A DNA stretch of 64,000 nt from Balanoglossus misakiensis (lineage: Eukaryota; Animalia; Hemichordata): contig CM082591.2 in the NCBI GenBank assembly GCA_040954595.2, forward strand, positions 4,697,957 through 4,761,956, given 5' to 3'. A program made the position numbers and the translations under genes. Under the pieces are notes generated by a model. It ran no database searches. It saw nothing but the letters and a program-made list of their open reading frames with translations, and was not told the origin of the DNA. Positions within the stretch are counted from its first letter, which is position 1; every line of letters begins with the position of its first letter. Positions 18,201 to 62,478 of this stretch are shown one piece after another.

Positions 18201-21200
18201 TTTAGTTTGTGTGTATAAACGTAACAAGATACACCTTCCCCATTCCCTTGCTTGCACAGGGAATCAGTAATCCTGATTCGACAAATATTTTCCCCATCAC
18301 TGGAACACGAAAACTGCATTTAATTTCCTCGAATGGAGGCAAGTCGGCGATCGCTGAACTGTGCTCGTTGAAAGAATCGTCCCGTTCTATTCAAGAAAAC
18401 CTGTTGGTTGGCTTCCTGTATTTCTCGTCGTATTTGAAAACCCCAGGATTTTTGTATTGGCGGATCAATAGTACACAATTTGTGACAATTGATCACTTTA
18501 CTGTGTAATTAAAGCCTGTTGAATGTACAGCTTCCCAATCTCCTGGCGGTTGGCCGTCATTTTTCGGGTGAATATCTGGCAAATATTGTAAATTGCTCGT
18601 ATTTCTGCGATGTACGTACAGTGTAGGCAAGAATCTGTTGATTGGAGTGACAATTTTCCTGTATTGGAAAATTTGATTTACTACACTATATCTATTTAAA
18701 TTCCACACCTCGTTTTCGTCGAATAATCTCAGAACGACACTCAGTCTTGATTTCATCTTTGCGATATTTACCACTTGGCGTTTTGATCGAGTAAATTTGG
18801 GGGGAGAATTTCTGAAGTGCAATTCTTAGCGGCTGAGGATGTGATTGGAAAGCGCGTAGCCAGATGGAACTTGTTCCCCTGGGTGGGTGTTTATCACATT
18901 AGCTTCAGTGGACCCCGATAATTCAATCTGTCAGCGACCAGGCAGAGTGTGAACGATGCGAAAATTGTATCGTACGACGCCACGCCACGCCAGGTTTCCG
19001 TACAATCATTATAGTATTCAGGGTCGCCATTATATTGAGTTCAAATACACTCCTCTGGCCAAACAGCCAATTTCACTGACATAAAAGATCATGTCCAACA
19101 AGTTCAAATCCACTTGAATGTAAAATGTACATTTAGGGGGATAGTAAATGCCATGGACGGCAACTGCAAATCCTACATTTTACAATTTTTAAAAACCTGA
19201 ATTTTCATGAAATTGGAAGACGTGCAACATTTCGATCGATCGTGTCATGTAAGCAAAAAATAACACATCTGAAGTATTTTTCCCCTGACCCTTGTGAGGT
19301 GTCAATTACTGTCACAAACAATGTCTATTGGTTGCCAGCACATGGTGCGCTGGGCAGAATTATTTTAATGATACCGAAATAGATTGAATCTGTGGCTGTT
19401 ACGTAATGCTTCTTTTATGCACGAATGGTTTCAGTGGTTAAGTGTCAGCCAGCGAGAGCTGTTTATAGTTACCCGTAGAATTTCTATCAAGCAGAGAGAG
19501 GTTTCATTTAAATTTAATTCCCAAAATCCCCACAGTCAGTATGTGTGTGTAAACTCCACATTGTAAATCAGTAATTTGATATTTAAAAAAAAAATATTCT
19601 GTAGCTTTTTCACATTATTTTGTATGTTTTTTTTTGTGGAAAATGATTAAATTGGGAATACAGAAATAATTTGCAATGACAGAAATATCCATATGTGTAT
19701 CATGTCAATGCCATCTGCTGTACGTGGTTAGGAAAGTATACAGAATAGCAAATCTGCCGTAGCCTGTCGCATCGCAAAAATACTGGTCTGCCACATATTG
19801 GGTATAGTCAACTGGGTTCCCAGCTGGGCATATGCTATTTGCTAAGATTCAGTACCCAGCCAGTTATCTAATATTTTGATTTTTTTTTATCTTTGAACAG
19901 TTGATTGAAGAGTTGGGATGCTTGCTGGACGACACGCCAGAGAAGGAGCTGGGTGAAAAAGATGTGGCCAATTACAAGCAGACGATTCTGGAAATGGAAA
20001 CGATACTGGCCGAGAAGTTGGATATTGCGACAGTCAGTCTACTGAAAGTAAGTTGAGACACTTGATTTAATTTCAAATAAAACCTATCTACAAGTGCAAG
20101 GACCCCTTCCATGTGTGAAGTATTAATTTTGCCGACCGACTGCTTTTATAGTCGCGTAATCACTTTTAACATCATGGGACCTTGCTTCTCTCCTCGGCTG
20201 CAACTGACATTCAGTCCACATTTCACGAAACTGCTTTGGAGTCGCTGAAACCGGTACAGGTTTTACACAGTTGTATCTACATGGATCGTGCAACCTTCAG
20301 TGTTCTTTGCGTGTTTGTTGTCCCTGATGGTGATGTCCTGAATTTGCAGACTGTCCATACCCCCATATCACTGCAACTTGGTTCCTACAGTGTTTTGAAC
20401 ATTGAAGTATTGCCTGCAGCATGTGTGCATGGAATAGCGTGAGAATGAAAGTAAGACTGCACCCACTACATACATGTAGAGGTCACTTGCTGTGAAACGA
20501 ATGGCATTGGAACTAAAGTTTTACCCTGGAGTGCCTTGCCTTGACCATTGTGACTGGTGATCCACAAACCTCCCAGTATCCCACTCTGACCCGTTTCACC
20601 ATGATTGCTTGTTCGAAATTCATCCTGTGGTGACTAGGCCCTCTCCACACAAGACCAGGTAAATGTGCTGTGCCCCCAAGTTGTGTGGTTGCTCAAAATC
20701 AGTCTTACAGTGGTCGTTCTTTTTTTTGTTGAATCGCGGAATTTTCTATCAGAAGGTACCTATTGGTGGCACGCCATCGCCAGCAGATGAAGAAGACATC
20801 ATGGATATTCTAATGGTATTTGCAATGTTCAGACTATTCCTTAATCTGAAAATTTCCTTTCCCATTCCACTGGAACATTCTCCTTGATCACTGCCTTGAG
20901 TTGACACTTGGTTTTCCAATGTCCAGATCATCCTGTCCAGAAGGTCCAGTTTGTCCTGCCCATATGGTTATCCTAGTGTTATCAACGCATGATGTTCTTG
21001 GCCACACTCTTTCTCAGTGTAAAGCAATGCACTGTTCCCCCACCTCTTCAGATACGCACACACACCATCTCATGGTGTGCAAATCTGTGATGGCTTGCTC
21101 GCAATTCAGAAAACTGAAAAGCAATATGGCAGTTTTGTCCCAACCGACTCCCAACTTGTCTAGTGTTCTAGACATCTCCTTGATCGGCATGTGATCCCAA

Positions 21201-24200
21201 ACCCAACAATCATGGCATTTGTGGTTCAGTTTATTCAAATGTGATTTTCCTATGGACCCCTTCTCCCCTGAACTTTTTGCCCATCCCCTACTTTTTCAAC
21301 CAGGTTTATTCCATTTACATTAAGATGCGGGTGAATCAGGGTAAGACTTGTACCATCTAATCGTATGGTGTGTTCAAGCATTGCTGCCTACCCATACAGT
21401 ACAGCTCATGTTTATATATTGACAACCACACATTTCAAAACTGTGAAATGATGGTACCACAGCTCTTTTCACAACTGTGGGATAATGTATAAGTAACTTC
21501 AAGTTTGCGAGGATTGGACTTGTTGTGTACACAGTGAAAGTGTTAACAGAGTTGTTCCACAAGCTTGCTTTGTGTCCATCACTGTTACAAAGATGTACCT
21601 CCAGTTGGAGAAATCAACCATGCAGCTAAAGAGCCTCAAGCCAGCTTTTTCACGGGCAAGAGATCAATGTATTTTACCTGGTAGTACTGGCATATGGACA
21701 TTGGTATGCGCAAAAACCCCAATGTTCATGTTCCCGTACACCCTGGTGAAATATATATAGCATAAACGCACATCCGCTGTTAACGGGCATTATCGAGTAT
21801 TGCGAAGCAGCTCATCAAGGCTTGTTGAAGACCAGACCTGCTTCATCGCTGTCATACATACTAGTTTGCTGTCAAATGGACAGTTCGTTCTTCGCTGTAT
21901 ATTTGAGTGATCTGCAAATTAATGGTTTACATGTACAATGTTAAGGATCTACATATTCAACTACAGTTGCCTTGTCATGAGATGCATTTGTCTTAAAAGA
22001 GTGTACATTTTTCACCTGTGAAGTTGCCACATAAAATATACAATAACTTTAAATTCATTGAACATTTCTTTTAACCTTTTCGAAGGAGAACTTTACACAT
22101 AACGTTTCTGAAAAAAACCACGACCACTTGTTCCTGAAAAATTAAAATTCTTACCAATGCCTTATAACTGCTTTAACATCTTAATGACTACAGTGTCCTA
22201 TAACTTTTCACTTTTCATTTATTGCTGGCCAACTTTAGAACCCAACACACGATGTAAGTTTTTTCAAATGGATTCCCCATGATGTGTGGTTTGCAGTGTT
22301 TTCGTATTGTCTGTATTATTAACAGGCTTTGTTTTATGTGATGTGATTTTGAAACCCACTTTGCAACGAGACTTGTGGGATTTCTCTAATAATGAAAACT
22401 TGTCTCGTGTGCGTTTATGTGCAACAGACAGGCTAGCCCCATGGCACTGCTGTGTGGAAATTGATTGAGAGTCGTGTGTTTTGGTTTGCCTAGTTAAAGG
22501 TATATGGTCACCTATGGATAATTAGTTATAGTTACCATGGTAACTTGAGATCTATGGAAAATTAGTTATAGTTACCATGGTAACTTGAAATCTAGCCAAT
22601 CGGGTATTTTCAGTGGGTGGCACACGCAAAAAAAACAGTGCCACCATACGTTCTTTAGAACTGTCAAATACGCCATTTCAGCTATGGGTGTATGTAAATT
22701 AGAGGTGACTGTATACCTTTAATCAAAAATGCAAATTTAGGGCATGGTGCAGTGTACCTGTTGCGTTACGTGTTCCAACAAGTGTTGTAATCTCTGTTGT
22801 GTTTTGCTTGTAGGATGCTGCTAGTATGGCTGATCAGGAGACGAGTAATCTTCAGTTGGTGAGGAGAAACGAGCAGATTCTGATGATGCTGTGGGGCAAT
22901 CTCAGCAAGAATCCCAGGTCAGTAGAGTTTCACTTGCATCATCACTTTCTCTCTAGAGTCCAAGCAACATCTGGGAAAAATCTTGCATGATCATTTGCGA
23001 CTGTGTCAAACAATACAGACAGACCAACTACCCCTTTCATCGTAATGATTTGGTCCAAATATATTGTGTTCTGTGTTAAAAAAAATTGGATCTCTGAAAA
23101 TTGGAGTGAAAGGCTTAAATAAGGCATTCCTATTTGACAAATGGTACATGTATCTTGTTGTAAAAACATGTCCAGACACCCCCTTTGCAATCATGGACCT
23201 TTTTAATTAAGAAAGGATTGTCAGATATATTTTTTAGTGAACCACCAGATATAACAATGTCCTTCCTTGTGTGCTCTACTTAACAGTCAATTGATAAAAC
23301 TCCAGCTGTGGAAGTTATTCGTTTAAAACTGAATATGTATTTTTTATTTTCTCAGATTCAAGACCTTTGAATTTGAAGATGAGAAGTTTGGCTTTGAACT
23401 GACCAAACAGCTGGCCTCTCTGGACATCGCCATTCGCATCATGCACACCAAGTACGATCATCTGTCGCATCACTGTCGCACGTTCTATCCAAAGAAGAAG
23501 AAGAAGAGGCCCCCTCCTCCACCCCCTGAGCCGGAACCGGTTCCAGAGGAGGAAACGGAGGAGGAAAAGAAGGAAGGGGAGGAGGAGAATGCCGAGGAGG
23601 AGGTTATTCCGGGAATGGAAGGTCTGACTTTGAAGCTGGAATCCGAGGTAAAGAAACAACATATGGATAAATTATTATGAATGAATCTTTGACGGGAAGA
23701 TTTTATGCACAGAGCAAATATCTATAGCACATTTGGATAACCAGAGGATTTACAAGTACTGAATGTTTTGTGTGTGTTTATTTTGCAACAGACTAATGTT
23801 GATGAGGAAGAGAAAAAAGAGGGAGAAGGTGAAAATGAAGAAAAGAAAGAGGAAGGAGATGAAGCCAAGAAAGAGGAGGAAACTGAACAAGGTACGAGAA
23901 GTTGATCTCTTGTGTTCAATCACTACTCGCGGAGAGAAAAAATCGAAAAGATGAAACTCGTAATTCAAACTCTCCATGGTACAGACTAAACCATGTGTGA
24001 GGAGTGTCTATAAGAAAGACGTGTATTCCTATGAACATGCTAACGCATGTGTATTTATTGGTACCGCTGTCACTTGACTTAATTATCATGCCACTATTCT
24101 CAATAGAATACTCTAGTTGTGCGCATGTGACAATTCATTCCAGAGTAGGCCTATTAGAGAGCTGCACAAAACGGTGACCTTGAACCTCAAGGACATTGTG

Positions 24201-27200
24201 GTGCTGTGTATTTGGTTTTCCACCCCAGCGAAATTGCTCGTACTTTTAGACGCTATTGAAATGCAGCAGCTGCAAATAAATGAAGTGACTTTGCGAGAGA
24301 ATAGAGCTCGGTTTATTAGAATCTATGAGCAGCAGTGATAGATGCCAGTGCTTTGACTCTTGACTGTGACATCAATATCTCTGCACCTGCCCTTCCCCTA
24401 AATAACTTGATTTATTTGACACACGTCCATCATTGGCTTTGACTCGATTCTTTGTGTCGTCAACAGCCCCAGTCGAGGAGGAGGAAGAAGAAGAAGAGGA
24501 AGAGATAGAAGAGGAGGAAGATGTTGTTGATCTTAGACAATATCAGCCACTTGGTGGCGTCGTCCACTTCGATCTGGTGCATCTGCCCCCACAGCCGAAA
24601 ACTGCCAAGGGTTGGTTGATGACACAAGGTATGTAGATGTAGATGTCATTAAAGTGAAACCTCTCTATTAGGGACACCTTCGGGAGCAGAAAAAAATATC
24701 CTTAATAGAGGTGTCCTGAATTGATGAATAAGTGATTCTAATCATAAATTGTCTTAAAAGATCTGTTCTTAATACGGCTGTGTCCTGATTAAGAGATTTT
24801 TTTTTTTTTTGCATTTTCATATAAGCTATTATCGAAATATTAGGAAGTATTCTCTTCTGATAAAAAGATCCAAGCATCTCTGAATCTGCAGTTAGACAAG
24901 TTTTGTAGATGTGGAGATTTTCTTTAATTCCACAAAAAGCAGTTTGGTTTCCTCAATGTAAAGTGTGTTGCCGTCGATTTCAATAGATGCTACTGTTGAG
25001 TATAGCCTGGTTCTAAGCAAGTGTGCTTGTATATTTTATCCAAACAGACGTTTCGGCTGAGCTGAAGAGAATGCCGTACCCGGGGAATGATGCCAAGCTT
25101 GGGCAGACGCTGTCGGGAACCCTACCCATGGGTCAGACTCTGGATCCCAAGGCCATTGCCAGCGCGGCTGCTGCTGCAGAGGCGTTGGGGGCGCCACCTG
25201 TAGGATTGAACTTCCGGTAAGTGTTTCATTAAAGGGACATTAGCTGTAAATTTTACCTGTATTTTCACTATCTCTGTGTATCAAATATAATTCTGTGCTT
25301 GACTCAAAACAGGATGATGCTCATACACCCAGTATCCTACTTGTCAACACAGCCTGTATGTGCGTAACAGACATTCAATCTTGCCCCCACCCCCACCTGT
25401 ATTGACACCCTTCCACCCCCACTCCCCTGTGGTATGGTCAGTCCTTGCTATTGAAAGCTAGTATGGTCAGTCCTTGGAATAGAAAGCTAGTGGGTCAAAC
25501 CACAAACTGGGGGACAGTCACCCTGGATTGAACTAAACATTTCACCGTCTTTTCACAGACTTCCAGATAATGTATTATTCAGTGAAGAACCCCAGATGGC
25601 TTACTGGTCGCCCGAGGGCAAACACTGGAGAATTGACGGATTTGCAGATATGAAATATGACGAAGGTAGGTTCCGCCCACACAGCCATGATCTTGCCACA
25701 TATATAGTCAGGAGAAATAAGCATCTCTTCAGGCTCATGTATCTTCTAATGAAACGGGAGCAACAGTGCCCTGTGGCGCTATTGTTATCTTGTGTTTTAA
25801 TACCCAGTTCTCTGAAGGTGAAACCAGTTTTAAGATAAAACAATGTATTGATAAATACAGAAACTGAGTTTGATGCTTGCTTCGTGTATGCACATGTTAT
25901 GAGGGGTATACAATCACCTAATTCAATGACCTGTGGGGGCACATTTTTTTTTCTAATGTGCCACGAGTGTTGTTCAACATGTTTGTATGATTGGCTTAGA
26001 GCAACTAACTTGTATGCAAAAAAAATCAGGCTCCAGAAATTTCTACAAACTTAAAATCTTAATTTTTTTTTTCTCGCAGAGAATCGCACAGTGGCCTTCA
26101 AGACCATCAACTTCGGGCCGCTGATCTGCACCCAGGACAGACACATCAACATGCCCTTCCAGAGCTGGGAGCTGAGACCCAAGCAGGCCAACCACGCCCT
26201 GCTGACCATCATCGCCGCCATTGTGGAGATCGAGATCGAGATCAAGGAGGGCCTGTGCTGCTTCCGACAACCGGAGGAGTCCGAGATCCGGCCGGAGTTG
26301 GAGAGCATCAAGGAAAAATGGGTGACTCCCAAAGAGCTTATCCAGGTATGTATAGTTTCCCCTTTCACCTCCATGGTTTGGTACAAGCACATTGTTTTCT
26401 GTGGTGAAGTTGGACCTCTATACGAAGTATGCTAACAACCTAAACTGGAAAAGACAACCACAACTTGCTAATACTTATAATACTGTAATTTATCAGTTTA
26501 ATTTGTCTGATATGACACGCAAAGCACGCAGAAATACCAAGTACACGATGGCTAAAATGCTTTTTAATCTTTTTTGTCCAGATGTTGTATTCTGCTGGAG
26601 TAAACTTGTTCCCAACAACTGAATCCAAGAAGTATGTCAGTATAAGTGAAAAGGTAAGTTTATCAATACTGTTCGAAATCTAGACGGTACCATGGCTGGC
26701 AGGTCATAACCTTTGACCCCTGACCCACTGGTGACCCATGTCGTTCAGTTTGCATCCAAGTCGTGTTCCAAAGGTTAAAATGATTGGACAATCCTACAAT
26801 CCTTAGTACTGTTTGCAGTGTGTTGGCCTGACAAGTGAAAATCTACAACTGACTAGAATATCAATGTGACAGTGGGGGTTTTCTTACATACAATTCTCGA
26901 TATTTTATTTTTTTAGGATGATGTGACTGAGGAAGGGGTGTACCAACAGATGGCCTTGACAGCGTCTCACTTCGCCTACTCTTGGAGTAAATGGAACGCT
27001 GAGTGTGGAAACGAGAAGATCGTAATCCAAGGGACAGAGTTGCTTCAAGACGAACCAGTCATTGAGGTGAGCACGACTATCCCCCAAATCGCTTATTTTA
27101 ACCCTAAATGTGCATTAATGTTTGTTTTATTAATTTGCTGAGTTGCAATAAAAAGCCGTAAAAAGTCCAGTAATTGTTAATTTCCCGTATTGCTGTAGTT

Positions 27201-30560: not shown

Positions 30561-31719
30561 AATGTGTACAGTCCCATCTAATTTACATACTGGTATATAC
30601 ATGTACCTCTATGGTCAAAAGGACGCGTTATTCTAATGGTGGCTAACTTTTATGCGTATGTCACCCACTGAAAAATCTGTGATTGGCTGTGTTTCAATTT
30701 TCCATGGTAACGGTGACAAAAATGCAATGCTGACCGTATGCGCTTTAAATGACGAGACGCAATATTTCGGTGTTGTGCAGATTTCAATCGGGAACTGGCA
30801 TGATACCGCTTCAGAAATTGCTATAGAGGGCGCTGTGTTTGCGCAAAATGCATTGCATAGGTGGCTTTTAAGGGAGGATTCGTTTGAACTGCGCATGTGC
30901 AACTTCTGTGTATTTACATATATGTACCATCGCAACTATTCTTTTCGGGGGGAGGGGGCTGCCAGCCAATATATGTTACATCAAAGTAAATTGAAAATGT
31001 GACAAAATGTCAAAATGCACTATTTGCAATTAATTAACATTGGCCAAAAGCCAAGTTAAAATCTGAGTACCTTAGACGATCTCCCGGTTGATTATTTTTT
31101 GCTTTTTTTACAATTAATAAATGACTAACCACGGAGGGACAGTGGAGCTACAAAGCAATGTTACATACACCTGCGCCCCAACATTTGGATTTCATGACAG
31201 CTCGTTATGTTGAAGCAAATTTCTTTATCATTGTTGGAAGCCACATGCTTTTTACTCCATAGCAACTGCTTGGCAACGCTGTCATGCTGTGAAGTGTTTG
31301 TGTCAGCAAACTTTATTGCTGTGCCGGACTTTACACATGGTGCGATACAAAAATTCTGCGTATTTCGATGAGGTGGACCACTAGTGGCCCAAATATGGTC
31401 AGGCCACGCTCCCAGTTCGCGGAATTGGGGACAATAGTATGACGTCGAAATCGATTGAACCGATTTTACCTCAGACGGGTTTAGTCGCTTGTACAGTACT
31501 TGCCAGGTCGCCAAGAGAGTAACACCACAAGAAAAACGTTCCACAAAACAGGTAAAAATGATTTTATTCAACGATTTTTTTTTCACTCATTTAGGCCTAC
31601 AGATTCTGAAACTGTCTATCATTTTTCTCTCGATTCCTTTGTTTTTACACCATGGCGATTTTCCGTTTGTGTTGCAGAACACCACTTTGTTGTCTAGGGA
31701 ACTGCGCTGGTTTTATAAA

Positions 31720-33930
31720 ATGGCCTCCAAAGAGGTGAAGTTTTTGGAGAAAATCGACGACAACTTCCTCGTCTGTGGTATTTGCTCAGAGCGATACAAG
31801 AACGCTAAAAATCTGCCGTGTCTACACAGTTTCTGCGAGGAGTGTCTCAGTCAACTGGTCAAGAAAACTGGCAAGTTGGAGTGTCCGATATGTCGTCGTT
31901 TGCACAAAGTGCCCGCAGGGGGCGTGTCGGGTATACCGTCGAATTTCTTTGTCAATGAATTGGTTGAAGAATTCGGAAAACGAGACGAGAGTTCGGCTGC
32001 CGTTGGGAAATGCGAGGGCTGTGAGGAGGCAGAGAGCGTGAAACACTGTGTTGAGTGTGACATTGATTTTTGTAGAACATGTGCAAATTCTCACACCCGA
32101 ATTCGTGCTTTAAGATCACACCAATTGCTGACGATAGCCGAGTACCAGTCTGCAAAGTTCGCCAACCCCACTTCAGTCCAGGCGGCGACCTACTGTACCA
32201 GTCACGAAGACTACCAGATCGAGTTCTACTGCAATAGCTGTGACACGGCAATCTGTCTGAAATGTACCGCTCTCAGCCACCGATCACACGACTATCGCTG
32301 TGTGAAAGACGCTGCCAGAGATTACTGCAAAGAGTTGGCCAAGATGATCGAGAGAGTCAAAGTGAAAGAAGACGAGGCAAGTGTAAGCAAGAAGGGTGTG
32401 AAGTCGATGACAGAATCGCTGGACGACACTTCCAAGAAAGTTGAAACGAAAGTGAAAACGCACGCGCAAAAGACACGCGAGGATTTACTCCGCATGGTGC
32501 AGAACGATTGTGACAAACTCTTAACAGAATTGAAAGATGAATACGACACAAGAAGCATGAACTTGAACTCACAGTTGAAAGAACTCGAACTCACGGAGAA
32601 TGATCTTTCAAATGCGCGGGAATTCGCCGAAAACCTGATGCATTACGGGAATGCAGCGGAGGTGATGACGGCAAGAAAGAGAGTGTCCGCGCAACTTGAA
32701 GAACTTCTGAAGGTTGAAACTAAGGTGGAGCCGGTGGAGACCGACCACTTGGATTTTGATGCGTGCACTGACTTCTGTGCTGAGAAGAGGCTAGGAGTCA
32801 TTCAAAAAGAGTCTGGGAGATATAGAGTTACCCAGACACCAAAGTCAGTAAGAGTTGGTGATGATATCAATGTTACCATGGCAACAGAGGGCGTTCAGAG
32901 AATTCCTTTAAACAGCAGTGAGGTTGAAGCAACAATGAAGACACCCGAAGACAAGATAGAGAAAGTTGAAGTATCTGATAAAAGAGATGGAACAGTGACT
33001 TTGAAATCTCATGCAAGGACAAAGGGCAAACATGAACTGTCAGTGTCAGTACGTAAGAAACCAGTAGAGGGCTCACCAGTAAGAATTAAAGTTATCCCCA
33101 AGAAGGGGTTGGTGTGTAAATTTGGGGAGAAAGGTAATGGTGTTGGTCAGTATAATGACCCGTGGGGGGTAACAATGACAAGAACAGAGGGTGTGTTAGT
33201 TTGTGATTACAGTAATGGTAGATTACAGTCTTTCACTTTGGGTGGGAAACACAAGAATCTCTTCAATTTTACAAATCACCCCAATGCAGTGATTCCCTAT
33301 GATGCAGCTGTGTCAGTGGATGGTAAATTGATCATTACAGACTGTGGAAATGCGCAGGTAATTGTCTGTGATGAAAATGGCCAAATTATCCGCTTTTTTG
33401 GAAAGGGAAAGTTAAAACATCCTGTTGGTGTTGCCATTCATCCCTTGACTGACAGGGTTTATGTTGTGGATTTTTCAGGTCACTGTGTACATATCTTCAA
33501 CCAAGATGGCAGCTATGTTAAATCATTTGGTAGTCAGGGTAGTGGTGACGGCCAGTTTAACCATCCAGAACATGTAGCCATCGACCATACAGGCAAAGTG
33601 TATGTATCAGACCGTGACAATCATCGAATCCAAGTATTTGATGGTGATGGTCAGTTCTTGTATGACTTTGGCAGCGAGGGGAGTGGTGATGGTCAGTTAA
33701 ATTGCCCCTATGGAGTGGCTGTGGATAAGCACAGCAATGTGTATGTTGCTGATTGGGGTAACCATAGAATAGTCAAATTTGATTCAGGTGGTCGGTTTGT
33801 TTGTCGGATTGATAGTGTACGGGATGGGTTGAGTAGTTCCCGTGGTATCTGTGTTACGGATGATGAACCACTTTGTCAAGTCATAGTTGTTGACCGTGGA
33901 AATCACCGTGTCTGTGTTTTTGCACAATAA
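31720..33930 (+). CDS. TRIM-NHL E3 ubiquitin ligase (TRIM2/3/56/71-like; RING, B-box1, B-box2, coiled coil, filamin, NHL repeats), 736 aa, intron-free CDS
   Basis: Uninterrupted ORF. RING CGICSE..LPCLHSFCEECL..CPIC; B-boxes CEGC..CVEC..FCRTC..H and CTSH..YCNSC..ICLKC..H..H; filamin-like D..DGT..GKHELSVSV..GSP; NHL repeats FGS.GSGDGQFNHP..VA.D..VYVSD..NHRIQVFD. The likely start is aaaATGG at 31720. The 77 upstream codons of the tracked ORF span a probable 5'UTR intron at 31552-31677. Confidence 0.92.
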   Translation: MASKEVKFLEKIDDNFLVCGICSERYKNAKNLPCLHSFCEECLSQLVKKTGKLECPICRRLHKVPAGGVSGIPSNFFVNELVEEFGKRDESSAAVGKCEGCEEAESVKHCVECDIDFCRTCANSHTRIRALRSHQLLTIAEYQSAKFANPTSVQAATYCTSHEDYQIEFYCNSCDTAICLKCTALSHRSHDYRCVKDAARDYCKELAKMIERVKVKEDEASVSKKGVKSMTESLDDTSKKVETKVKTHAQKTREDLLRMVQNDCDKLLTELKDEYDTRSMNLNSQLKELELTENDLSNAREFAENLMHYGNAAEVMTARKRVSAQLEELLKVETKVEPVETDHLDFDACTDFCAEKRLGVIQKESGRYRVTQTPKSVRVGDDINVTMATEGVQRIPLNSSEVEATMKTPEDKIEKVEVSDKRDGTVTLKSHARTKGKHELSVSVRKKPVEGSPVRIKVIPKKGLVCKFGEKGNGVGQYNDPWGVTMTRTEGVLVCDYSNGRLQSFTLGGKHKNLFNFTNHPNAVIPYDAAVSVDGKLIITDCGNAQVIVCDENGQIIRFFGKGKLKHPVGVAIHPLTDRVYVVDFSGHCVHIFNQDGSYVKSFGSQGSGDGQFNHPEHVAIDHTGKVYVSDRDNHRIQVFDGDGQFLYDFGSEGSGDGQLNCPYGVAVDKHSNVYVADWGNHRIVKFDSGGRFVCRIDSVRDGLSSSRGICVTDDEPLCQVIVVDRGNHRVCVFAQ

Positions 33931-35338
33931 TCAAAACATACCACAACAGAAGACAAGACAGTTACTGCTAAACCATGAATACAGAAAGAGGACTGAGTTG
34001 AGTGGAAGAATTCAAAGTTTATCAGAAACACTGTATCTAATTCAAGTCATTGCTAAAATTGAAATTTATTTAGACAAAAATCTGAAAACGTTCTTGCCTG
34101 TGTTTTATATAGTATATATTTTTTTTTCATTCAAGTTCGGTGAGTTTTCTTGGTTATACCATTGTTAGGTTGTTCGAAAATATTTTAATGACATTTTATC
34201 TTCTGAAAGTGACTCTAAATGTTTGTAGAATTTTTCCCCAAAAACATTTCATCTGTTATGGTCATGTTATGTTAGTATGATTAGGTCCAAAATTAATGTA
34301 AAGATTGGGGATTTTCACGTCATTTTTCATATTTTCATTTTTTTTGTATTTTGAGATTTCAAAAACTTTTTTTTTAAAGAAACTTCAAACATAACCAGCT
34401 TTGAATATATGTTTTTATAGTTTGGTTCATAGAACTGTAAGCAGATTTTTTTGTAACCCTGGAACTACTGGCACATTTTGTCTCTGTGCATCATAAGATG
34501 TATGTGTGCAATGAATTTATACGATTTTCTGGGTTTTGTTATGATATATGTGAAAATGGGAATAAAATATAATCGCCAAAACAAAATAAGCGTGGAAGTG
34601 AAGTTTGCTTTTTCAAGATCAACCCTCTCCCCATACGTCAACTTGGAATATCGCAGTGTGTGAACTCGTGTACGTGACAGTTCACCCCCGCAAGGAGTAA
34701 TTGGCGGTCCCTGAACTCGTTTTCTCTCCCACACGCCTTATGCATGTTGATAAATTGACCCCATCAAATAGTGACCTGGGCCAGAGTAATGTATGTATGT
34801 ATGTATGTATGTGTGTTTGCATGCAGCATGTGAGAGCTTGATTTCATGAAGATTAGGGGAGAAACGTTTGAATTTTTCCCTTAAAAATTGTCCATTCACT
34901 CCCCTAAATATCAAATGATTCTACCCTTACGTGTTTGCCTCCTATGTACGTTCAGGATCGCATTACAAAACAAAAGTATTCGATATTTCTTGTATTGTGG
35001 GCGCTGTTCACAGTGGAGTAAATAACTACCAAACGCATAAACGGCGGTTTTATTCAAAAACGTGGAACAACAACACAAGTACGAACCCGACGAACTGATC
35101 GATCGATCTTTCTCTGCTGTAGCAACGCGATCTACTGTAAAATTGGTTGAAAGTTATTTCCGTGCATCTCCGAAGATTCAAACATATGTAAGTCGACGTT
35201 TTTTCCCCCAGCTCTCTGCAGGAAATTGGCAAATTACTACGTGTACCGGTGGCCAACGTCAAGACCTGGGTCCATTACCAAATCATGATGCATGACAATG
35301 TTTGTTTCTTCCTTAGATATAAATTTATTGAAGTCAAG

Positions 35339-35825
35339 ATGTCAACAACAAAAGAAGACAAGAATGCTAATTTCAAGAGTCATCCGGAGACACCGGCTGT
35401 GATTAAGAGGAAACAACTTGGTCCGATGTTTTTGAGTCCCACCGACAGTATGATGTCACCCTGTACTCAGAAATTATTAGTGGGCAAAGGTCATCCTGCT
35501 CAAAAGTAAGAAATGGAATTTTCACTTTTTCTAATGCTGCCAGTCCGAACAGATCATATATTAGTCAACTTGTCGGGGGGTCGCCATGTTGTTTGGAGTA
35601 AAACGAGTAATTGCATTTATACATAGAACAAAATTACTGGAAATAAAGCTAAAAGTTCCAGCTATAGAGCTTTAAAAAGACCTTCACAGATCAACAATTA
35701 ATGTGACTATTCTATTTTCTTGTTTGAATTTTCACAGTAAACTACACAGACAGATGTTACACGGAATGATACAGAGCAAGCAACCGATTCCAAAACTGGA
35801 ACTCGACAAAGAGAATCAACTCTAG
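35339..35825 (+). CDS. Small Spo12-family-like protein (84 aa) with C-terminal KEN box
   Basis: Coding exons 35339-35505 and 35738-35825 (phase-2 intron AA|gtaag...ttcacag|T), plus a probable 5'UTR intron at 35188-35316. Protein: MSTTKEDKNANFKSHPETPAVIKRKQLGPMFLSPTDSMMSPCTQKLLVGKGHPAQNKLHRQMLHGMIQSKQPIPKLELDKENQL*. FLSPTDSMMSPCTQKL matches the Spo12 core motif as I recall it. Confidence 0.78.
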
Positions 35826-36804
35826 AAACCGTCACAGTTCCTAAAAAAACTTCTCCATACAAAATCATCACTGCCAAGAAAAGACGACTCGGTTCTACTG
35901 TACAAACCTGAGTGAATGCATATCAAAGAATCGTGTTTACCAATAATATCTCAAGAGCATTGTTTGTTCTGAAAAATGCCTTGTGCTTACTTCTTTGTGT
36001 TTGTTTATGGAAATGTCATTTTTCTGTTTGATTTCAGAAACTTCTGTGTACAGGAAAATAAGTTGGATTTATTTGCTGAAAATACTAAAGTCTCTTATCT
36101 GCATTGTTGCGATACTTGAGATTGCTATTCGCCAATAACATTTTATTTGCACATTTCTCAGAATTTATTGCCTGCTTTCAGATATTAATTTTATTTTATA
36201 ATATAGCTTTATTAGTAAAATGAAAAGATAATACACATATATTGATTCTATAATTTTTATTAAGAGTCTGTTTTACGAGAATGTCCTACCATATAAACTG
36301 CGTAGTCACGCGGGATCTCGCAGGATTTCAGATAATGGTCTATTGCAACACCATTCATAGGAATGATATTGACATCACTGCCAAGTATTTTGTATGAATA
36401 TAGTTTTAGCATAGATCTTGAACCGTTTGTACTTTTGTTACTTTGTATTGCTAACACTATAATTGAGCGACTTCCAGATTTTCATGTCTGTAAGGGTGTT
36501 TTATTGTCAGATTATTGTGCAATAAATATGTACCGTTTTTAATTAAAAACTGGCTGGTACTTCATGTTATAGTAGTGTGCAAGACACGACTGCTTTCGAT
36601 AATTCCTGAGGCGTGGGGTTTGGACCGTTATTCGAGTCGACTGGCGGTCCCTAATGTCTACGGTCCGAGCTATTTTGTAGCTGGGGATATCCAAACATAA
36701 AGAAAACTCGACCAATTCGTAATTTTTACTTCCGAGCTCAGCCATACGACAATATAACCGAGGTTCTTTTGTTTTTTTTACAAGAATGCCTCATGGGAAG
36801 TTGC

Positions 36805-36862
36805 CCAATACGCATGCGTGAATCTACCTCTTACCTAGGCGCCGCCATTTTAGATTGGCAAG
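36805..36862 (+). promoter_or_regulatory. RPS10 promoter and non-coding first exon (pyrimidine-rich TCT-like start, YY1 site, NRF1-like site)
   Basis: CGCATGCG at 36811-36818; pyrimidine tract CCTCTT near 36827; GCCGCCATTTT (YY1) at 36841-36851; donor AAG|GTATGT at 36862/36863. This layout is typical of ribosomal protein gene promoters. Confidence 0.6.
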
Positions 36863-37345
36863 GTATGTGAAGAGAGGTTTAAAATCGGCGAAATTGTCCG
36901 TCATCCGCACTCACAACAATTAAAATAAATGAACACTAAAAGCTCAAGACATTAGGAATATCTGTGGTAACATTATTTCGTGCTCAGACGGTGAAGCAAT
37001 CGGTTAAAATTGCCTGTAAATGTCCGTAGGCACACACGTACATCCTTGATCAACATGAACGCACGGAGCAGAATGATGAAGTCGTTTCAGACAGTCGCCA
37101 AAGAATACACTTGCCGTATTGTCTAGTTTAATAAATGTCCATGTTTGAGACGTTTCTGTCGACAAGAATGTGGTCACGGGTATTATAATTCCGGTGAATA
37201 TCCCCGGTAAACTTTGTTTATCCCCCAAAACACGATCAGTTTGAGTTGAACTGTCGCTGTGTCCAAGCACCATGGCATACACATTACAGTACACAGTATT
37301 CAAGTGTAATCTTATTTTTTCCTTTCTGTGTTCCTTCCATACAAG

Positions 37346-39411
37346 ATGTTGATGCCAAAAAAGAACCGAGTCGCCATCTATGAACACCTCTTCAAGGAGG
37401 GTGTCATGGTAGCCAAGAAGGATTTCCACCTACCAAAACATCCCGAGGTTGACACAGTGCCCAACCTCCACGTTATCAAGGCGATGACGGTAGGTTGGTT
37501 TCCAGTAATGAACACAAGACCGTCCAGTCATGTGTTTACAACATATATTTGTAAATAAAAACAATGTGTAGTTTTCCATTCTTTTCATGATTCTTTGTTC
37601 TATTTCACTTGTTACCCAATGTTCATTTTGTCAACACCTACATACAATATTGCTTTTGATTCAATCGTTATCAATTTCATTGTCCAAAGCAGTCTGATAG
37701 TATGCTAAATGAAATGGTAGTAACATTACCCTTTTACCGCCATGGTTTGATCCAAATGTATTGTTTTTCTATGGTAACATTGGACTTCTATAAGAGGGAA
37801 CTGGGGGTGAAAGGGTTAAATCAGCTGATGTAATGTTTCCCTTTTTTCTGCAGTCACTGAAATCACGAGGCTACGTCAAGGAACAGTTTGCTTGGAGGCA
37901 CTACTACTGGTACCTCACAAACGAGGGAATCCAGTACCTCCGAGACTTCTTGCACCTGCCTCCAGAGATTGTGCCCGCCACTCTGCGCAGACAGACCAGA
38001 CCAGAAGCCGCGAGACCTAGGCCCAAAGGTGAGTGAAATGGACGAGTCTGTCAGTTTCCCGAAGTCAGGAAATTGTAAAATATGCAATCCACTGTGTTGT
38101 GTGCCTCACGTTCTTTCTGCGAAGATGCTGTGTATGCTTGTCTTGGTTTTGTATTCAATGAAAAACCTGTGTGCCATGTTCATCATGGTGTATGACAGGG
38201 TGTTCCATTTTATATATGGGGGATGGGGTGATTAACACCTTGTTGGCATGTTGTCATCCCCCAACAGTTTGCCATGGGGGGACTAGCACTTTCGAGATGT
38301 TACATTCCCATATACCGGAGTGGAATAACCCCAAATATTCTGGCAAAAGGAGAAACTCCCACCCCCTGTGTTGATAACATACTAGCTGGATAACTGACTA
38401 ACTTATTTTTTTCCCGAACCAGGATTTGAACCATCCAAAGGACCAGCAGCTCAATCAGAAGACAGACAAGCGTACAGGCGAGGACCACGTAAGTGAAAAT
38501 ATAGTCTCTATGTACCAATATGATTGGATGCAACTGACATTAATTGAATTTAGTGTGTGCCTTAAAAAATCTTAAACTTTTTCCTCATATTTTGCTCAAG
38601 GCAACTTGAGATTAGTTTCTCATAATATTAAGAATAAAAAATGGGGGTTACCATGCAAAATTTTGTATGAGAGAGCAAAATTGTCTCAAATTTACAATTA
38701 AAAATGGCGTTTCTGTGATTGTTTTTTCTAAAATAATTATCGGAAATTGATGCTTACATAAAAAAAAATTGTATATTTGTAAGGTTTTTGATAAGAGTTG
38801 TTCCTGACCCAGATCATGTCTTGTACCATTGATATTTACACTAACCGGCCAGGTTCAGGATGTGTGATTGATGAGTGGTTTCTCTTTTTGTTTATTCCAC
38901 CCACAGCTGGTGCCGGACCCGACAAGAAGGGAGATGCTGGCCCCGGTCCGAACCCAAGCTTTGAATTTGTAAGTTTATCGCGCTTCCTGTTTCATTATAA
39001 CCCCGACAAGTTTTGATGAAATGCTGAAATCGAGAATGTTGGTTTGAGGTTCCAGATCTGTACACTGCATTGCTGTGACCAGATGCTGGTCTGTTTGACA
39101 TGGGGGGGGGGGGGGGGGGGGTAGTGTTGACTGTAAAACAGGGAGAAAAAAAACGCTGAGGCCTTTTGTTTCACTTAGGCATTACCCGGTTGTAGACACT
39201 AAGCTGTCTTTGCTTGAAAAAATTTCATATGCAGTGAGAAGTCTTGCTATAACAGAACTTTTCATTCAAAATCTGCTAGATTGTTTATAAGACACATAGT
39301 CGTACATGTAGTAATTGTTCATTGTGTCAGAATGCTGAATTTTGTGTGTGTCTTTGTTTCTTTTTGCAGAGAGGTGGATTTGGACGAGGCAGAGGTGGAC
39401 CCCCTTCGTAA
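37346..39411 (+). CDS. RPS10: 40S ribosomal protein S10 (eS10), 162 aa
   Basis: Exons 37346-37489, 37854-38028, 38423-38488, 38907-38968, 39370-39411 (TAA). [114 protein letters not shown] at 39463-39468. Confidence 0.98.
37729..37815. mobile_element. About 85-bp piggyBac-like MITE, copy 5 (reverse), in an RPS10 intron
   Basis: CCCTTTTACCGCCATGGTTTG...GGGAACTGGGGGTGAAAGGG-TTAA. Confidence 0.75.
39102..39121. repeat. Poly-G tract (a second one at 43228-43247)
   Basis: About 20 consecutive G. Confidence 0.9.
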
Positions 39412-41161: not shown

Positions 41162-44100
41162 ATGGCAGAGGAAAAACGTTCGCAAAGAGTTAGGAAGTCC
41201 TTCTGGGACGTCAACCAATACAAGAAGACAGTCAAACGGATTGAAAATGGACACAAGTAAGATATATTCTCATTGTTTTCTTCAGTTGTAATCAGAGAAT
41301 CTCGCTAATGAATATAATTATCGCTCTATTGTCATTCACAAGTGAATAACACCACGTTAGTTCTTGTAATTTTAAATTAACATATTCGTTTACTAAACAC
41401 CTGGTGTATAATGGCGACGATACAGGTGATTACTCAATAGCTGTGAAACTCGGCTGATAATGAACCAGTTGACTGTACACAACGGCCACCCCACGGTGTG
41501 GTGTTGAGTGACCGTACCGTGCCACGCACGCATATACGAGATGAATACCTGTGCATTGCAACGATGTCCATTCATAGATGTGCTAATATATTTAGACTTA
41601 TTATACAATGTGATATCGTATACCTCAGCTGTTTCCTGTCAAAGTTCAGATTTCTGTCGATCGTTTCATGTACAGAAGTTCTAAACAAATATGCTTCTTG
41701 AAAAATACTGAGTTGAGTTGACCGATATTACGAAGAAGTGTGTGTACGCGTGAACACAAAGTCGCGGATAGCACATACCCGGCTATATAGCTTCGTATAC
41801 GCGCCAGTTTTAGCTTCGACGGGTTATCTAATTTTTCCTGTCTAAACTTTTACTGTTATTTTCAAGATTCACCCATTGCGTAATGGTCAAATTTGTTTAC
41901 TTCCATATGTCATGTCATCTGTCATCTTTGTCAATTTGTATTTGAGAGTTTAAGAGAGGAGAGGAAAGGGGGAGAGACAGAGACATGGGGACGGAGAGAG
42001 ACATACTATTGGCCCGGCAGAAGTTTACACAATCAAACAAAAAAAGCCATCTTGCCCGATGCGATCACCTGACACCATAGTATCCTTCCGAAGGAAAAAG
42101 AATTGGATGTACTGTGGCGATAACATTAAATTTGATGCAAAGCGCATCCGCAGCAATCTATGAAATAGAATAGGGCTTCGCCAAACGAAAACTACCGGTC
42201 ATCTAGTTGTGTGAATACTAAAACGGAAAAATTACATTTTCCGCGACCTGTTGGCTAATGGGTTGGCCTCTCGTGTGCATACTAAGACCGGATATTTATT
42301 TTTACAATTAAACAACTTTGATGTCATGGCTGTTTTTCAGGTCATGCGACGAATTCATGGCGATGGTACAGGAGCGAGCCGAACTGGAGATGAAATACGC
42401 CAAAAGTCTGAAGGCGTGGGCGGAGAAATGGGAAGAAAAAGTTGTCAAAGGTATGATACCAAAGCCGTCATGTGTTGTGTTGTGTTGTGTTGTGTTGTGT
42501 TGTGTTGTGTTGTGTTGTGTTGTGTTGTGTTGTGTTGTGTTGTGTTGTGTTGTGTTGTGTTGGGTTGTGTTGTGTTGTGTTGTGTTGTGTTGTGTTGTGT
42601 TGTGTTGTGTTGTGTTGTGTTGTGTTGTGTGTGTTGTGTTGTGTTGTGTTGTGTTGTGTTGTGTTGTGTTGTGTTGTTGTGTTGTGTTGTGTTGTGTTGT
42701 GTTGTGTTGTGTTGTGTTGTGTTGTGTTGTGTTGTGTTGTGTTGTGTTGTCTTGTCTTGTCTTGTCTAATGTCTTGTCTTGTCTTGTCTAATGTCTTGTC
42801 TTGCCTTGTCTTATGTTGTGTCACAGCTATAGGCGATTAAACAAACGCGCATGTGAACTGAATCATTCCAGGTCCCGAGTACGGCTCCACTGCGTCGGCA
42901 TGGAAACACAGTCTCCAAGAATCTTTTCAAATCTCCAAAATACACGAAGAATGTAGGTTGAAGTTACTTGCTCCGGAAGGACCGTTACAGAATATGCAAA
43001 AGTGAGTTCGGTCTTTTCAATTTTTATTTCACGAACGCGTAGGTATAGTGCTAACCTTTCACTGTATCACCGAATATCCATTACGTTGACAATTAGTTGC
43101 GTGGACCGAACCACGGTGATCATGGGTTAGAATCAAACCGCATTTTTTTTTTCACTATGGCCATCCACTGGCAGTCGAGGAGAGACCCGACCTCGGTAAG
43201 ATCGCATTGTCTGCCGTTGTAAATTCCTGGGGGGGGGGGGGGGGGGGCTCGGCCATTTGACTGCTACCGTCGAAACCATGAATATGTACATCGGAATTTC
43301 CGACCAATAAACAAGTAGTTAAAACCACTGATTAGCATAATATTGTTCACAGGTGGAAGAAAGACAATTATCGCAAGCTGACATTCGGCGGTTACCAAGA
43401 GATTCGAGAAGCAGAGGAAGGATTCGCGGCTGCGCAGAAAGATTATGCAAAGCAATTGGTCAAGACAAAGAAAGCGAAAAAGGTAAATATTAAAGAGTCA
43501 CTTGTCAATGGAATTTCACACTTGCGGAAACAACTGTTGAGTGGAAAACATTGATGGATGCTGGTTCAGTGCGCGCGTTTCACGTCATCCTCAAATGGGC
43601 GAAATTTCAGGGTGTCTCAAGTTTTGTCCAAAAAATACAGTAATGGCCTTTAAACGGTTCCGTATCCAATGGCACTTCGGAATCCACAGTTTCCCCAAGA
43701 CACCGGTTTATGACTCAAGACGTGTTCGTTTGTCCACCAAACGTGACCCGTCAAACTCAAAGGCTCTATCAAACCGATGTTTTGTTTTGCCTGTCTCTCA
43801 GGATTACCACATAGCCTGCACCAACGTGGCCAAAGCGCAGGAAGAACTGGACACGCAGACTCTGTCGCCGTCATCGAACCCAGACTCGTTGCGGAAACTG
43901 CAACAGAGAGTGGAAAAATTGGTCAGCGAGCAGGAGAAACTGAAACAACAGTACCAGCGGCGACTTCTAGAATGCCACGGGGACTTGAAATCAAAATATG
44001 TACAGGTGAGCGTTTCTATCATCATCATGGTCATTGTGATCAACATCATTGTCGTCGTCGTCGCCACCACCACTACCACTATCGTCACCAGCGGTTGACA

Positions 44101-46302
44101 TACATTTTGTATATCATCATCTCTTGCAATAAAATGCTTTTCCTTAATTAAAATATATGTTGTGATATTTCTGGTCATATTTCTCATGTGGTATGGTCTT
44201 CCCCCTGTACCCTGAACATAATCAAACCTGATCGAACGGCCGAGTACTTGAGATCACTATTTTTACTTTCTCTTCTTTGCAGCACATGACAATTCAGTTT
44301 GACAAATGCCAGGACTTCGAGAAGAAAAGATTGGATCAGTTCAAGGAACAATTGAACCACGCCCTCAAATGCGTCGACGTCTCTCTGTCGCCTAAGTAAG
44401 TTTCACCATTTCACCCTATTTCACTGTGTAGAGGTCCACTATACCAAAGAAAACAATAGATTTGGACCAAACCATAGTGCAGAAAGGGTTGTGTATGTAG
44501 CTCCACATATTCAACACAATTATTGATCGAAAATTTCTGACATTGTCATTAGACGTTACATAAGTGAGGCCTGTGGACAAAACGTGTGTTAAGATTTATT
44601 TCCGTCACCTTCGGCCAATAATTCCTTGAAACTTAAGTTTTTCTTGTTTCTCGTTCAGCTTCCAGAGCACGTACAAGCAAGCGTATGGATCTATCCAATC
44701 GGCCGACGCAGGCAAAGATCTGGATTCGTGGAGAATTAAGTATGGCACGGGAATGGAGCCAAACTGGCCCAAATTTGAAGTACGTACGCTTTCCTGTATA
44801 TACCTAGACTAGCCCACTAGTCGCTTGGTGATTTTTTAATCTCAATACTTTTTGTGTTTTCGGTGTTTTTTGTCTAATTGCAATAGTTGTTGCGTGCATG
44901 CTTGCCTTGAGCGTGTTTTTGGTAGTGAGGTGAGTTTCGAATTTGGGACTGAGCTTGTGGTTTCGGGTTATGGGCCTATGCGTTCCCTTACGCGTTCCCT
45001 ACACATAATGAAGCCCATAGACTTGATACCACACGTTCAATCATTTGAAGAAATTGAACTCGTGTTGTACGTTAATCAACTTTTTATGTTACTCGACTTT
45101 CTCGTCCACAGGATTACGATGTTCAGGCTGACGGCAGGAAATTTAGCTTTGCCCCTCGAGCATCGAGACCATCACAGACATTTAGAGATGACGGGTACGT
45201 CCCTCTTTTGTATTTTGATCGGTTGTCGTGCACGTTTTGTCGCTTGTGGGACTAGGCTGGATATAGACCGGCCCATGCGTGTAGTCTCCCAATGATATTT
45301 TGGCACATTTTAAGTAACAGTTCCAATTTTGCTTTCACAGTCTTCTCGATGACGATTTCGATTCTGACGATTTTGACGACTATTCTGACGAAACAGACGC
45401 GGAGAGCAACACGAAAGAAGTGAATGGACACAAGGACGAAGGTGAGAGTATGTACCGTGACAATTTCATTTTTTTTGCGCCAATTAAATTTCTTGTATAC
45501 GTTCCACTTCGATGCCATAGTATATGTATTTGCCTGGTTATTTTCTAGACTCTCTCACAGCCCCTCTCGTCATCCACGCCGGCTTATGGACTGATTGCAT
45601 GTGTGCCCGGCGAGAGGTTCGCTACACAACACCAAACGGTGCTTCTCCCTTGCCAAACGGTTGAGGGCGCGTCAGTGAAGATCCTTATTGTAGCGAACCG
45701 TGGGCTGTGAGAGAGTCTAGTTATTTTCGTACCCAGCAATGCAATTTTTAAACAACACCGACAACGTTCAATTTGCAGATTCACACTCCCTGTACGACAA
45801 CATCCCGGCGCTGAGTCCGGCCAGTGAGGCCAGCAGCAGTCAACCCACGAGCGCCGGAGCACGCTCGCCATCAACGGCGGCAAGCAGTTTAGAAATGTTC
45901 GCCGTGAGGGCGTTGTATGATTTCGAACCGGCCTCCAGTGACGAATTGCAGCTGCGTGCGGGTAAAGTCTAACTTCTCCGAAAAATGTGAAATAACGCGT
46001 TTTTTTTAAACTGAAGAATTTTCTGCATGAAAAAAAAGTCGGTCGGAACATGATCAACTTGATGAAGGAAACCTCTCCATAACCTACCCGACTATTTCTA
46101 GTATCATCAACATTTTACAATGCAATTTTTGTGTAATTATTCTGTTCTTTTCGTAAATCTTCACTTCATAATATTACTGTGCTTTATTTTAGGTGACATC
46201 CTGACTCAAATCGGGAACGTGCACGACAATGGATGGGCCTATGGCAAGCTGCGAGACAAACTGGGGCTGTTTCCAGCCAATTATGTCGAAGCTCTCAGGT
46301 GA
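41162..46302 (+). CDS. PACSIN/syndapin-like F-BAR + SH3 protein, divergent paralogue (about 459-473 aa)
   Basis: Exons 41162-41256, 42341-42450, 42872-43001, 43353-43482, 43802-44005, 44283-44395, 44659-44779, 45112-45194, 45341-45441, 45779 (or 45737)-45961, 46193-46302 (TGA), all phase-consistent. Motifs: [66 protein letters not shown]...YGTGM..NWPKFE; SH3 VRALYDFE...DEL.LRAGD...GW..G...GLFPANYVE. Start context gccATGG (another in-frame ATG at 41150). Confidence 0.9.
42471..42822. repeat. (TTGTG)n microsatellite grading into (TTGTC)n
   Basis: Directly visible; produces the spurious CVVLC and HNTTQ ORFs. Confidence 0.97.
44404..44488. mobile_element. About 85-bp piggyBac-like MITE, copy 6
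   Basis: CACCATTTCACCC...AGAGGTCCA...AAACAATAGATTTGGACCAAACCAT...GAAAGGG-TT. Confidence 0.65.
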
Positions 46303-52500: not shown

Positions 52501-52530
52501 TGTATGTATGTATGTATGTATGTATGTATG

Positions 52531-52561
<31 letters not shown>

Positions 52562-52714
52562 GTGTATGTGTGTACATGTATTTATATGTATATGTATGTG
52601 TGTATGTATGTATGTATGTATGTATGTATGTATGTATGTATGTATGTATGTATGTATGTATGTATGTATGTATGTATGTATGTATGTATGTATGTATGTA
52701 TGTATGTATGTATG
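52501..52714. repeat. (TATG)n microsatellite
   Basis: Directly visible, with one interrupted block. Confidence 0.97.
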
Positions 52715-55700: not shown

Positions 55701-56435
55701 ACGTCTGTGAGATTCCCAACTAAAGGGTGTTTTACCATCAGCCATATACTCACACAGCCAAACAAATAGAACAGAATTTGTGCGTTTTTTGTGTGTGAAA
55801 CATCATAATGTACAATTGTTGCCTGAGCATTTTTGATGTTTGTCAGTTTCCATGGTGATGAATTACCAAGGAAACGCAGTCATTGGGTTTCTCTTGGACT
55901 ATAATTGCCACCACACGCAGCATGTCTAATTATTTCCTGTCGAAATGGGTGGGCATTGATGTACTGAAGCCTAGGATTGTTCGAATTGTACTGCATACCA
56001 CTAATTAACGTTAGACGGAAGAGTTGTTTACAAGTTTGGAGAGATTTTAACTGGCGTATTTTTCTTTAGAAATTTAGATCAAAATATGAGTAGAGCTTGA
56101 TGCCATTGTTAAAATAAAAATTGTTCTAAAAAAATTAAAATTAATTCATTCAATCAGCACTATGCAAAAACGACTTGGCCAAAAATTGCTTGATGATTTT
56201 TGTGCGTGATAATGGTCAGTTGTAAATATCTCAATCCCAAGTTTGAATTTTTCAAAATTTTACAAGATGACTGAAGCAGGTTACTAATCAAAATTAATAT
56301 TATACCATTGGACATAATTAATGAAATAGCAGGTAGGTTAAATGTTAAAAAAATAAATAATAAAGGAAATTATGTGTATGTTTTTTTCCAGGTTGAAATT
56401 TGACCATTTGATGGAGAGAACAGCATCGCACTAAG

Positions 56436-62409: not shown

Positions 62410-62478
62410 TACATACATACATACATACATACATACACACACACATACATACACACACACATACATACACACACACAT
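62410..62478. repeat. (CATA)n/(CA)n repeat in the PACSIN 3'UTR
   Basis: Directly visible. Confidence 0.9.

Follow-up and report, generated by a model that had tools for sequence, protein, structure and literature searches.

A Spo12-family gene in the hemichordate Balanoglossus misakiensis, a candidate Cdk1-switched inhibitor of PP2A-B55

A short gene in Balanoglossus misakiensis is predicted to encode a protein of 84 amino acids that, by profile score and motif, is a member of the Spo12 family. It lies on the forward strand of contig CM082591.2, in a stretch of 64,000 nucleotides that was analysed as a whole and is called the window below. By analogy with fission-yeast Spo12, the protein is on balance probably a Cdk1-switched inhibitor of PP2A-B55, primed through Cks1 and removed through its KEN box by APC/C-Cdh1. 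Inhibition of PP2A-B55 makes up half of the mitotic switch, and few inhibitors of this kind are known from animals.

Gene structure and splicing

The predicted product is put together from two coding exons with GT-AG intron ends, giving a CDS of 255 nt with no internal stops. The first-pass annotation had described a gene with canonical splice sites and a product of 84 amino acids, with SP sites at residues 33 and 40, an upstream TP and a KEN close to the end, and all of these were found again, the TP at residue 18 and the KEN at residue 80. The parts of the gene and the sites in its product are:

35050..35187, forward strand: likely non-coding first exon (predicted), with a donor GTAAGT at 35188 and no ATG; 35050 is the left edge of the stretch inspected and not the exon start
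35188..35316, forward strand: likely 5' UTR intron of 129 nt, with GT at 35188, a pyrimidine tract and AG at 35316
35317..35505, forward strand: exon with the start codon (ATG at 35339), holding codons 1-55 and two bases of codon 56
35390..35395, forward strand: Thr18-Pro19 with a basic patch after it, 15 residues ahead of S33 and 22 ahead of S40; candidate site for Cks1 priming
35429..35476, forward strand: Spo12 core, residues 31-46, with S33-P and S40-P (Pfam PF05032) and a predicted helix at 41-48
35506..35737, forward strand: phase-2 intron of 232 nt, with donor GTAAGA at 35506 and a pyrimidine-tract acceptor ending in CACAG at 35737
35738..35825, forward strand: last coding exon, with the end of codon 56, codons 57-84 and the stop ending at 35825
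35808..35816, forward strand: KEN box, residues 80-82, preceded by Asp and two residues from the C-terminus
35826..36547, forward strand: likely AU-rich 3' UTR, its end placed from AATAAA (36521) or ATTAAA (36542)

The acceptor before 35738 is the first past the donor among the eight that pass a filter of 60% pyrimidines. When 50 AG positions were tried, four led into the frame of the KEN box, with products of 100, 84, 80 and 71 amino acids, and because of this there is more support for the reading frame than for the exact acceptor. Acceptors farther downstream lead to products without KEN. These downstream acceptors, and the three other AG positions that reach the same frame, would be what one expects if the locus were a pseudogene or were spliced in another way, so that no 84-residue product ending in KEN is made. 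Such an outcome is highly improbable, since the frame is intact, the splice signals are strong, poly(A) signals follow the gene, and the upstream region is rich in CpG (observed/expected 1.52 at 34900-35099 and 1.15 at 35100-35299). The probability of a KEN arising by chance in the tail of the protein is also low (P = 0.013).

A further point against mis-splicing comes from a metagenome scan, in which 47 pattern matches came down to two loci, L001 and L002. Counted from the second serine, the intron of the gene modelled at L001 lies at codon +15 and that of the window gene at +16, both in phase 2; the KEN box is at +40 in both. In L001 a TP lies 15 residues before the first serine, and by eye the protein is sponge-like. 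L002, where the second proline is missing, was set aside as a likely chance match. Judged from these sequence features, the locus at 35339..35825 is almost certainly a real gene.

Promoter words were also counted in 500 nt, where CHR-like hexamers (3 vs 1.9 expected) and CCAAT (2 vs 1.1) do not rise above chance. In both the window (35043-35058) and L001 (about 2606-2622) a GC-rich E2F/CDE-like word is followed by TTCAAA, a reverse CHR, upstream of the gene. This is the arrangement of cell-cycle promoters, although the counts in the window are not above chance.

Neighbouring genes

Several other genes were seen on the forward strand of the window. An intronless TRIM-NHL gene of 737 codons (31717-33930; RING, B-box, filamin and NHL repeats) ends about 1.1 kb upstream of the Spo12-like gene. 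The first coding exon of ribosomal protein S10 (RPS10; Pfam S10_plectin) is at 37346-37489, with a CpG-rich region at 36500-37100 before it. At 56412-58641 there is an F-BAR (FCH) exon (56439-56651) with further exons that we take to be PACSIN-like, and ORFs near 42312 and 43541 (42312-44151) presumably belong to a second F-BAR gene, judged by eye. A multi-exon gene at 15422-26435 is, again by eye, presumably similar to the dynein-associated CASC1/IC97; three of its exons gave no Pfam match. Long arrays of pentanucleotide or tetranucleotide repeats at 42308-42840, 52408-52886 and 62051-62599 give rise to spurious ORFs.

The Spo12 core and family membership

The first-pass annotation had assigned the product to the Spo12 family and proposed the Pfam profile as a check, and the assignment held up. 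The 56 residues encoded by the exon, which were the sequence given to Pfam, match Spo12 (PF05032) over residues 33-46 and model positions 2-15 of 35; the score is 33.5 bits, where the cutoff is 20.5, with E 3.8e-8. A separate HMM, made from the 12 named fungal matches described below and nothing else, gives the product 37.6 bits, and the best of 2000 shuffles reaches 9.3. The core pattern occurs a single time in the six frames of the window. ESM Atlas likewise places the window protein (0.88-0.89, at the level of a lead) and one shark homologue (0.91) in Spo12 clusters.

The two SP sites at residues 33 and 40 lie within the domain and are 7 residues apart. S33-P, S40-P and T18-P are all minimal sites, in that none of them fits the full S/T-P-x-K/R or S/T-P-x-x-K/R consensus.

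The 84-residue product is predicted to be mostly disordered with short helices around the core. In AlphaFold2 models, both of low confidence, the 56 exon-encoded residues have a mean pLDDT of 64.9 and a pTM of 0.28 with helices at 19-27 and 41-48, and the sturgeon homologue has helices at 22-31 and 44-50 and is likewise predicted to be disordered. A sequence search of the PDB found no solved relative; the single match, a viral envelope glycoprotein (E 0.96), was taken as chance.

Homologues and their range

A full HMMER scan with the exon product, which does not contain the KEN box, gave 13 matches, 11 of them above the Pfam Spo12 cutoff. Two long proteins without a Spo12 match, P0002 and P0004, were removed ahead of all counts. 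A word-based search with the same 56 residues gave no match, where the HMMER scan did. Two profile searches enlarged the set to 137 homologues. Organism names are attached to 59 of these, which come from seven non-arthropod animals, eight mites, 12 fungi and 32 plants. The seven animals are three sponges (Ephydatia, Dysidea and Geodia), one brittle star (Amphiura), two sharks (Scyliorhinus and Chiloscyllium) and one sturgeon (Acipenser). The family had been thought in the first-pass annotation to be kept in invertebrate deuterostomes. With homologues in sponges, a brittle star, mites, sharks, a sturgeon, plants and fungi, it is not a relic of that group, and this part of the annotation has to be given up.

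The vertebrate records sit on contigs of 1.9-57 Mb, and in the tree the three vertebrates group together (91/53), as do the two sharks (98/89). The contig sizes and the grouping argue that these records are not contamination. No teleost, tetrapod, mammal, Drosophila or nematode is among the named matches, although the searches hinge on shared words and on length limits, so that absence from these groups is not implied.

Most of these animal proteins already carry PF05032, attached automatically by the databases. Their source labels are "hypothetical" or "uncharacterised", save for one plant protein called "Putative spo12" and two with unrelated automatic names, and no function is attached to any of them. 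In the literature, where coverage of subscription journals was thin, we found no account of an animal Spo12 member; "SPO12" in PMC5473564 and PMC9957857 denotes unrelated things. In the searched part of a sea-star oocyte proteomics data set (PMC8370769), where the visible headings are at protein level, neither five words of the motif nor the name Spo12 came up.

How far does the similarity to fungi reach? In reciprocal HMM comparisons, scores on the fungal HMM were 35.7-46.4 bits for the named non-arthropod animals, and scores on the animal HMM were 36.9-43.9 bits for the fungi. On the fungal HMM the alignment of the window protein spans the exon junction (residues 26-68), which adds 0.7 bit. 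Shuffled tails behind an unchanged core did as well as the real tail of the window protein in 89 of 300 cases; of 15 proteins compared in this way, only four had 10 or fewer such cases in 300. The fungal similarity is thus almost confined to about 16 residues. A tree was built from 40 of the 138 sequences; of its 37 inner branches 6 are starred, all of them shallow groups, and the window protein is in no starred set. Because the signal beyond the core is weak and the tree supports shallow groups only, family membership is a matter of score and motif, and orthology is less firm; strict orthology to yeast Spo12 is nevertheless likely from these comparisons.

The opposite case would be that animals and fungi came to share a short phospho-motif by convergence and that their proteins are not orthologues. 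The small amount of fungal-like signal beyond the core and the poorly resolved deep branches would fit this. It is very unlikely, however, given that about 10 positions are fixed in 16 residues and that size and architecture are similar across fungi, plants and animals, and given that the reciprocal HMM scores far exceed those of shuffles. Even a convergent motif would suggest the same target.

Conserved sites around the core

Of the 137 homologues, 131 have the strict core S-P-T-D-x-x-x-S-P, and in 132 the SP sites are 7 residues apart; in the five others, from mites or unnamed and arthropod-like, they are 6 apart rather than 7. The conservation of the motif expected in the first-pass annotation is therefore seen, as is that of the KEN box in the named non-arthropod animals. 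A phenylalanine stands two residues ahead of the first serine in all seven of these animals and in 9 of the 12 named fungi.

Upstream of the core, a proline-directed site 15-18 residues before the first serine is found in 7/7 non-arthropod animals, 7/8 mites and 0/12 fungi. Plants have it in 28 of the 31 proteins with enough sequence (25 with Thr and 3 with Ser). Among the 15 named animals, the 14 that have the site all have Thr there, and so do all 50 of the 71 unnamed matches in which it occurs.

For the KEN box, only those at least 25 residues past the core were counted as distal. A distal KEN is present in 7/7 named non-arthropod animals, where shuffled tails would lead one to expect 0.25, although these are not seven independent events, as the named species are few and, with two sharks and three sponges, partly close kin. 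It is found in none of the eight mites, 12 fungi or 32 plants (in one mite a KEN lies near the core) and in 8 of 78 unnamed matches. The later profiles included KEN-bearing tails and may have favoured KEN-bearing matches in these counts; the KEN-free exon query still gave four proteins with a distal KEN among its 11 true matches. KEN boxes have a preference for D, N or E at position -1, and one of these is there in 14 of the 15 homologues with a distal KEN, against a frequency of 0.17 in the tails. A KEN box only two residues from the C-terminus, as in the window protein, may work poorly. Neither the KEN box nor the upstream TP is needed throughout the family, because the distal KEN is missing in all eight mites and the TP in all 12 fungi.

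Two subfamilies stand out. Mite and unnamed arthropod-like members (P0005-P0010, P0014-P0037 and P0051-P0077) have lost the KEN box and have acidic tails or long acidic N-termini. The plant proteins (such as P0049, P0117 and P0131) form a distinct subfamily with Val or Ile in place of Cys after the second SP (32/32). In some Asteraceae there are several copies; the upstream TP is mostly kept, and many plant members are without a precomputed Pfam tag.

The modules that animal members bear and the fungal matches lack, namely the TP with its basic patch and the KEN box, could also mean that the animal protein is a Cdk-phosphorylated, APC/C-degraded cell-cycle protein with a partner other than PP2A-B55. 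Candidates are PP4, another PP2A holoenzyme, or the APC/C itself, for which the protein would be a KEN competitor. FxxP is a PP4 docking motif, and an F-x-x-P at residues 31-34 would open the route to PP4; the phenylalanine in all seven named non-arthropod animals fits this as well. Yet the same phenylalanine is found in the fungi, where B55 is the reported partner, and the 16-residue core is the best-conserved part of the protein from fungi to sharks, which indicates a conserved binding surface. We consider another partner rather unlikely.

A possible mechanism

PP2A-B55 inhibition as the preferred reading draws on work in fission yeast, where Spo12 is described in a preprint (bioRxiv 10.1101/2025.10.28.685054) as a Cdk1-phosphorylated PP2A-B55 inhibitor of 90 amino acids, disordered and with two helices. 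According to its main text, Cdc2 phosphorylates Spo12 at S54, with nuclear entry at G2/M. Pab1/B55 is the only TurboID neighbour that depends on S54, phosphorylation of S54 goes up when Pab1 is lost, and deletion of pab1 suppresses the phenotype of Spo12 overexpression. In an AlphaFold3 model, phosphorylated S54 rests on a basic patch where B55 meets the catalytic subunit, and the serine that precedes it by 7 residues lies in the active site; this spacing is singled out by the authors. The case is built on proximity labelling, genetics, phosphoproteomics and AlphaFold3, and the main text contains no inhibition assay with purified enzyme. The same text reports no major change in the Spo12 level through the cycle and almost no phenotype for loss of spo12 in wild-type fission yeast. 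Sequence homologues are described there as difficult to recognise, with none named outside yeasts, and FAM122A is put forward as a functional substitute; the words "metazoa", "human", "animal", "vertebrate" and "plant" are absent from the main text.

For the 84-residue protein, cyclin-Cdk1-Cks1 would first phosphorylate T18, dock there and then phosphorylate the weak sites S33 and S40. In the part of a review that deals with it (PMC12982290), Cks1 reads pThr-Pro 10-22 residues N-terminal of target sites. Priming by Cks1 is likely because the SP sites are minimal, because T18 lies 15 and 22 residues upstream of them, and because all animals with the upstream site have Thr there. As S40 and S33 match S54 and S47 of fission yeast by spacing, the same target, PP2A-B55, is suggested. 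Transferred from fission yeast, phosphorylated S40 would sit on this basic patch where the two subunits meet, with S33 in the active site, so that PP2A-B55 is kept off mitotic substrates and Cdk1 gains positive feedback without Greatwall. The predicted disorder and the two helices around the core, in the window protein as in the sturgeon homologue, fit the preprint's description of the fission-yeast protein. Excerpts of PMC11446282 describe B55 as binding short helices with hydrophobic and basic faces, and the predicted helix after S40 is a plausible candidate for a B55-binding helix.

At mitotic exit, PP2A-B55 would dephosphorylate the protein and APC/C-Cdh1 would destroy it, which would reset the switch for G1. 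Removal by APC/C-Cdh1 at exit is suggested by the conserved KEN box, which has the features of APC/C-Cdh1 substrates (predicted disorder, conservation, and D, N or E ahead of it). The first-pass annotation had connected the degradation of yeast Spo12 to a KEN box. Its statement that yeast Spo12 is degraded through APC/C-Cdh1 agrees with a published listing that has budding-yeast Spo12 among known APC substrates, while the connection to KEN is loose, as 0/12 named fungi have a KEN after the core.

The same annotation had proposed a FEAR-like or phosphatase-timing module, of which the timing half fits the preprint's account of PP2A-B55 and the FEAR/Cdc14 half is the weaker option. That the animal protein belongs to a FEAR-like pathway acting to release or activate Cdc14 is quite improbable. 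We know of no animal counterparts of the yeast proteins Fob1 and Net1, which speaks against it. What favours it is that budding-yeast Spo12, as stated in excerpts of PMC11641746 and PMC2876151, works in FEAR through exactly these two proteins and requires phosphorylation of S118. In fission yeast, however, Spo12 does not control the localisation of Clp1/Cdc14 according to the preprint's main text, which recasts the FEAR role as inhibition of PP2A (bioRxiv 10.1101/2025.10.28.685054).

A wider reading can be put forward tentatively, and we think it somewhat doubtful in its entirety: Spo12 would be an ancient, eukaryote-wide PP2A-B55 inhibitor and, in animals, a third class beside ENSA/ARPP19 and FAM122A, built as an 84-residue timer. 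In this timer a Cks1-primed cascade of three Cdk1 sites would set the threshold for switching on, and the KEN box would make switching off irreversible. If the wider reading is true, Spo12 has been kept in animals from sponges to sharks. There would then be a Greatwall-independent arm of M-phase entry in the eggs of marine animals and early-branching vertebrates, with a KEN-less remodelling in arthropods.

The preprint's open question of whether the Spo12 class extends beyond yeasts can now be tested in sea-star or frog egg systems, because sponges, an echinoderm, mites, sharks, a sturgeon and plants have direct sequence homologues. The TP and KEN modules offer two separable predictions of how animals rewired the switch. 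Some points temper this. The Pfam tags were there before, no mammalian member turned up in the searches described above, and the yeast phenotype is slight. A direct route from Cdk1 to B55 inhibition is also already known, as starfish Arpp19 can be phosphorylated directly by Cdk1 as well (PMC3998810, in the passages concerned). Because loss of spo12 has so little effect in fission yeast, by the preprint's main text, the role in animals may be a small one, or ENSA/ARPP19 and FAM122A may make it redundant.

Comparison with known systems

The closest described system is Spo12 of S. pombe. Compared by description, its 90 amino acids and the 84 of the window protein have in common the disorder, the Spo12 domain, the SP pair with its spacing of 7 and two helices near the core. 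The animal protein differs from the fungal ones in its TP with basic patch and in its C-terminal KEN, neither of which is in the 12 named fungal matches. The S. pombe protein is steady through the cycle in the preprint's main text, whereas the KEN box of the animal protein predicts that its level would oscillate.

Spo12 of S. cerevisiae has the same Pfam domain, and by spacing its S118 and S125 correspond to S33 and S40. It is listed as an APC substrate in the source cited for this above, and acts through Fob1/Net1/Cdc14 in the nucleolus according to excerpts of PMC11641746.

ENSA/ARPP19/Igo1 and FAM122A are likewise small, disordered blockers of PP2A-B55 and are likely the working analogy for the window protein. 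They have no sequence similarity to Spo12, as the main text of bioRxiv 10.1101/2025.10.28.685054 has it, and a Pfam scan of pieces of the window gave no endosulfine and no FAM122 match. ENSA and ARPP19 are switched by Greatwall, whereas the window protein is proposed to be switched by Cdk1.
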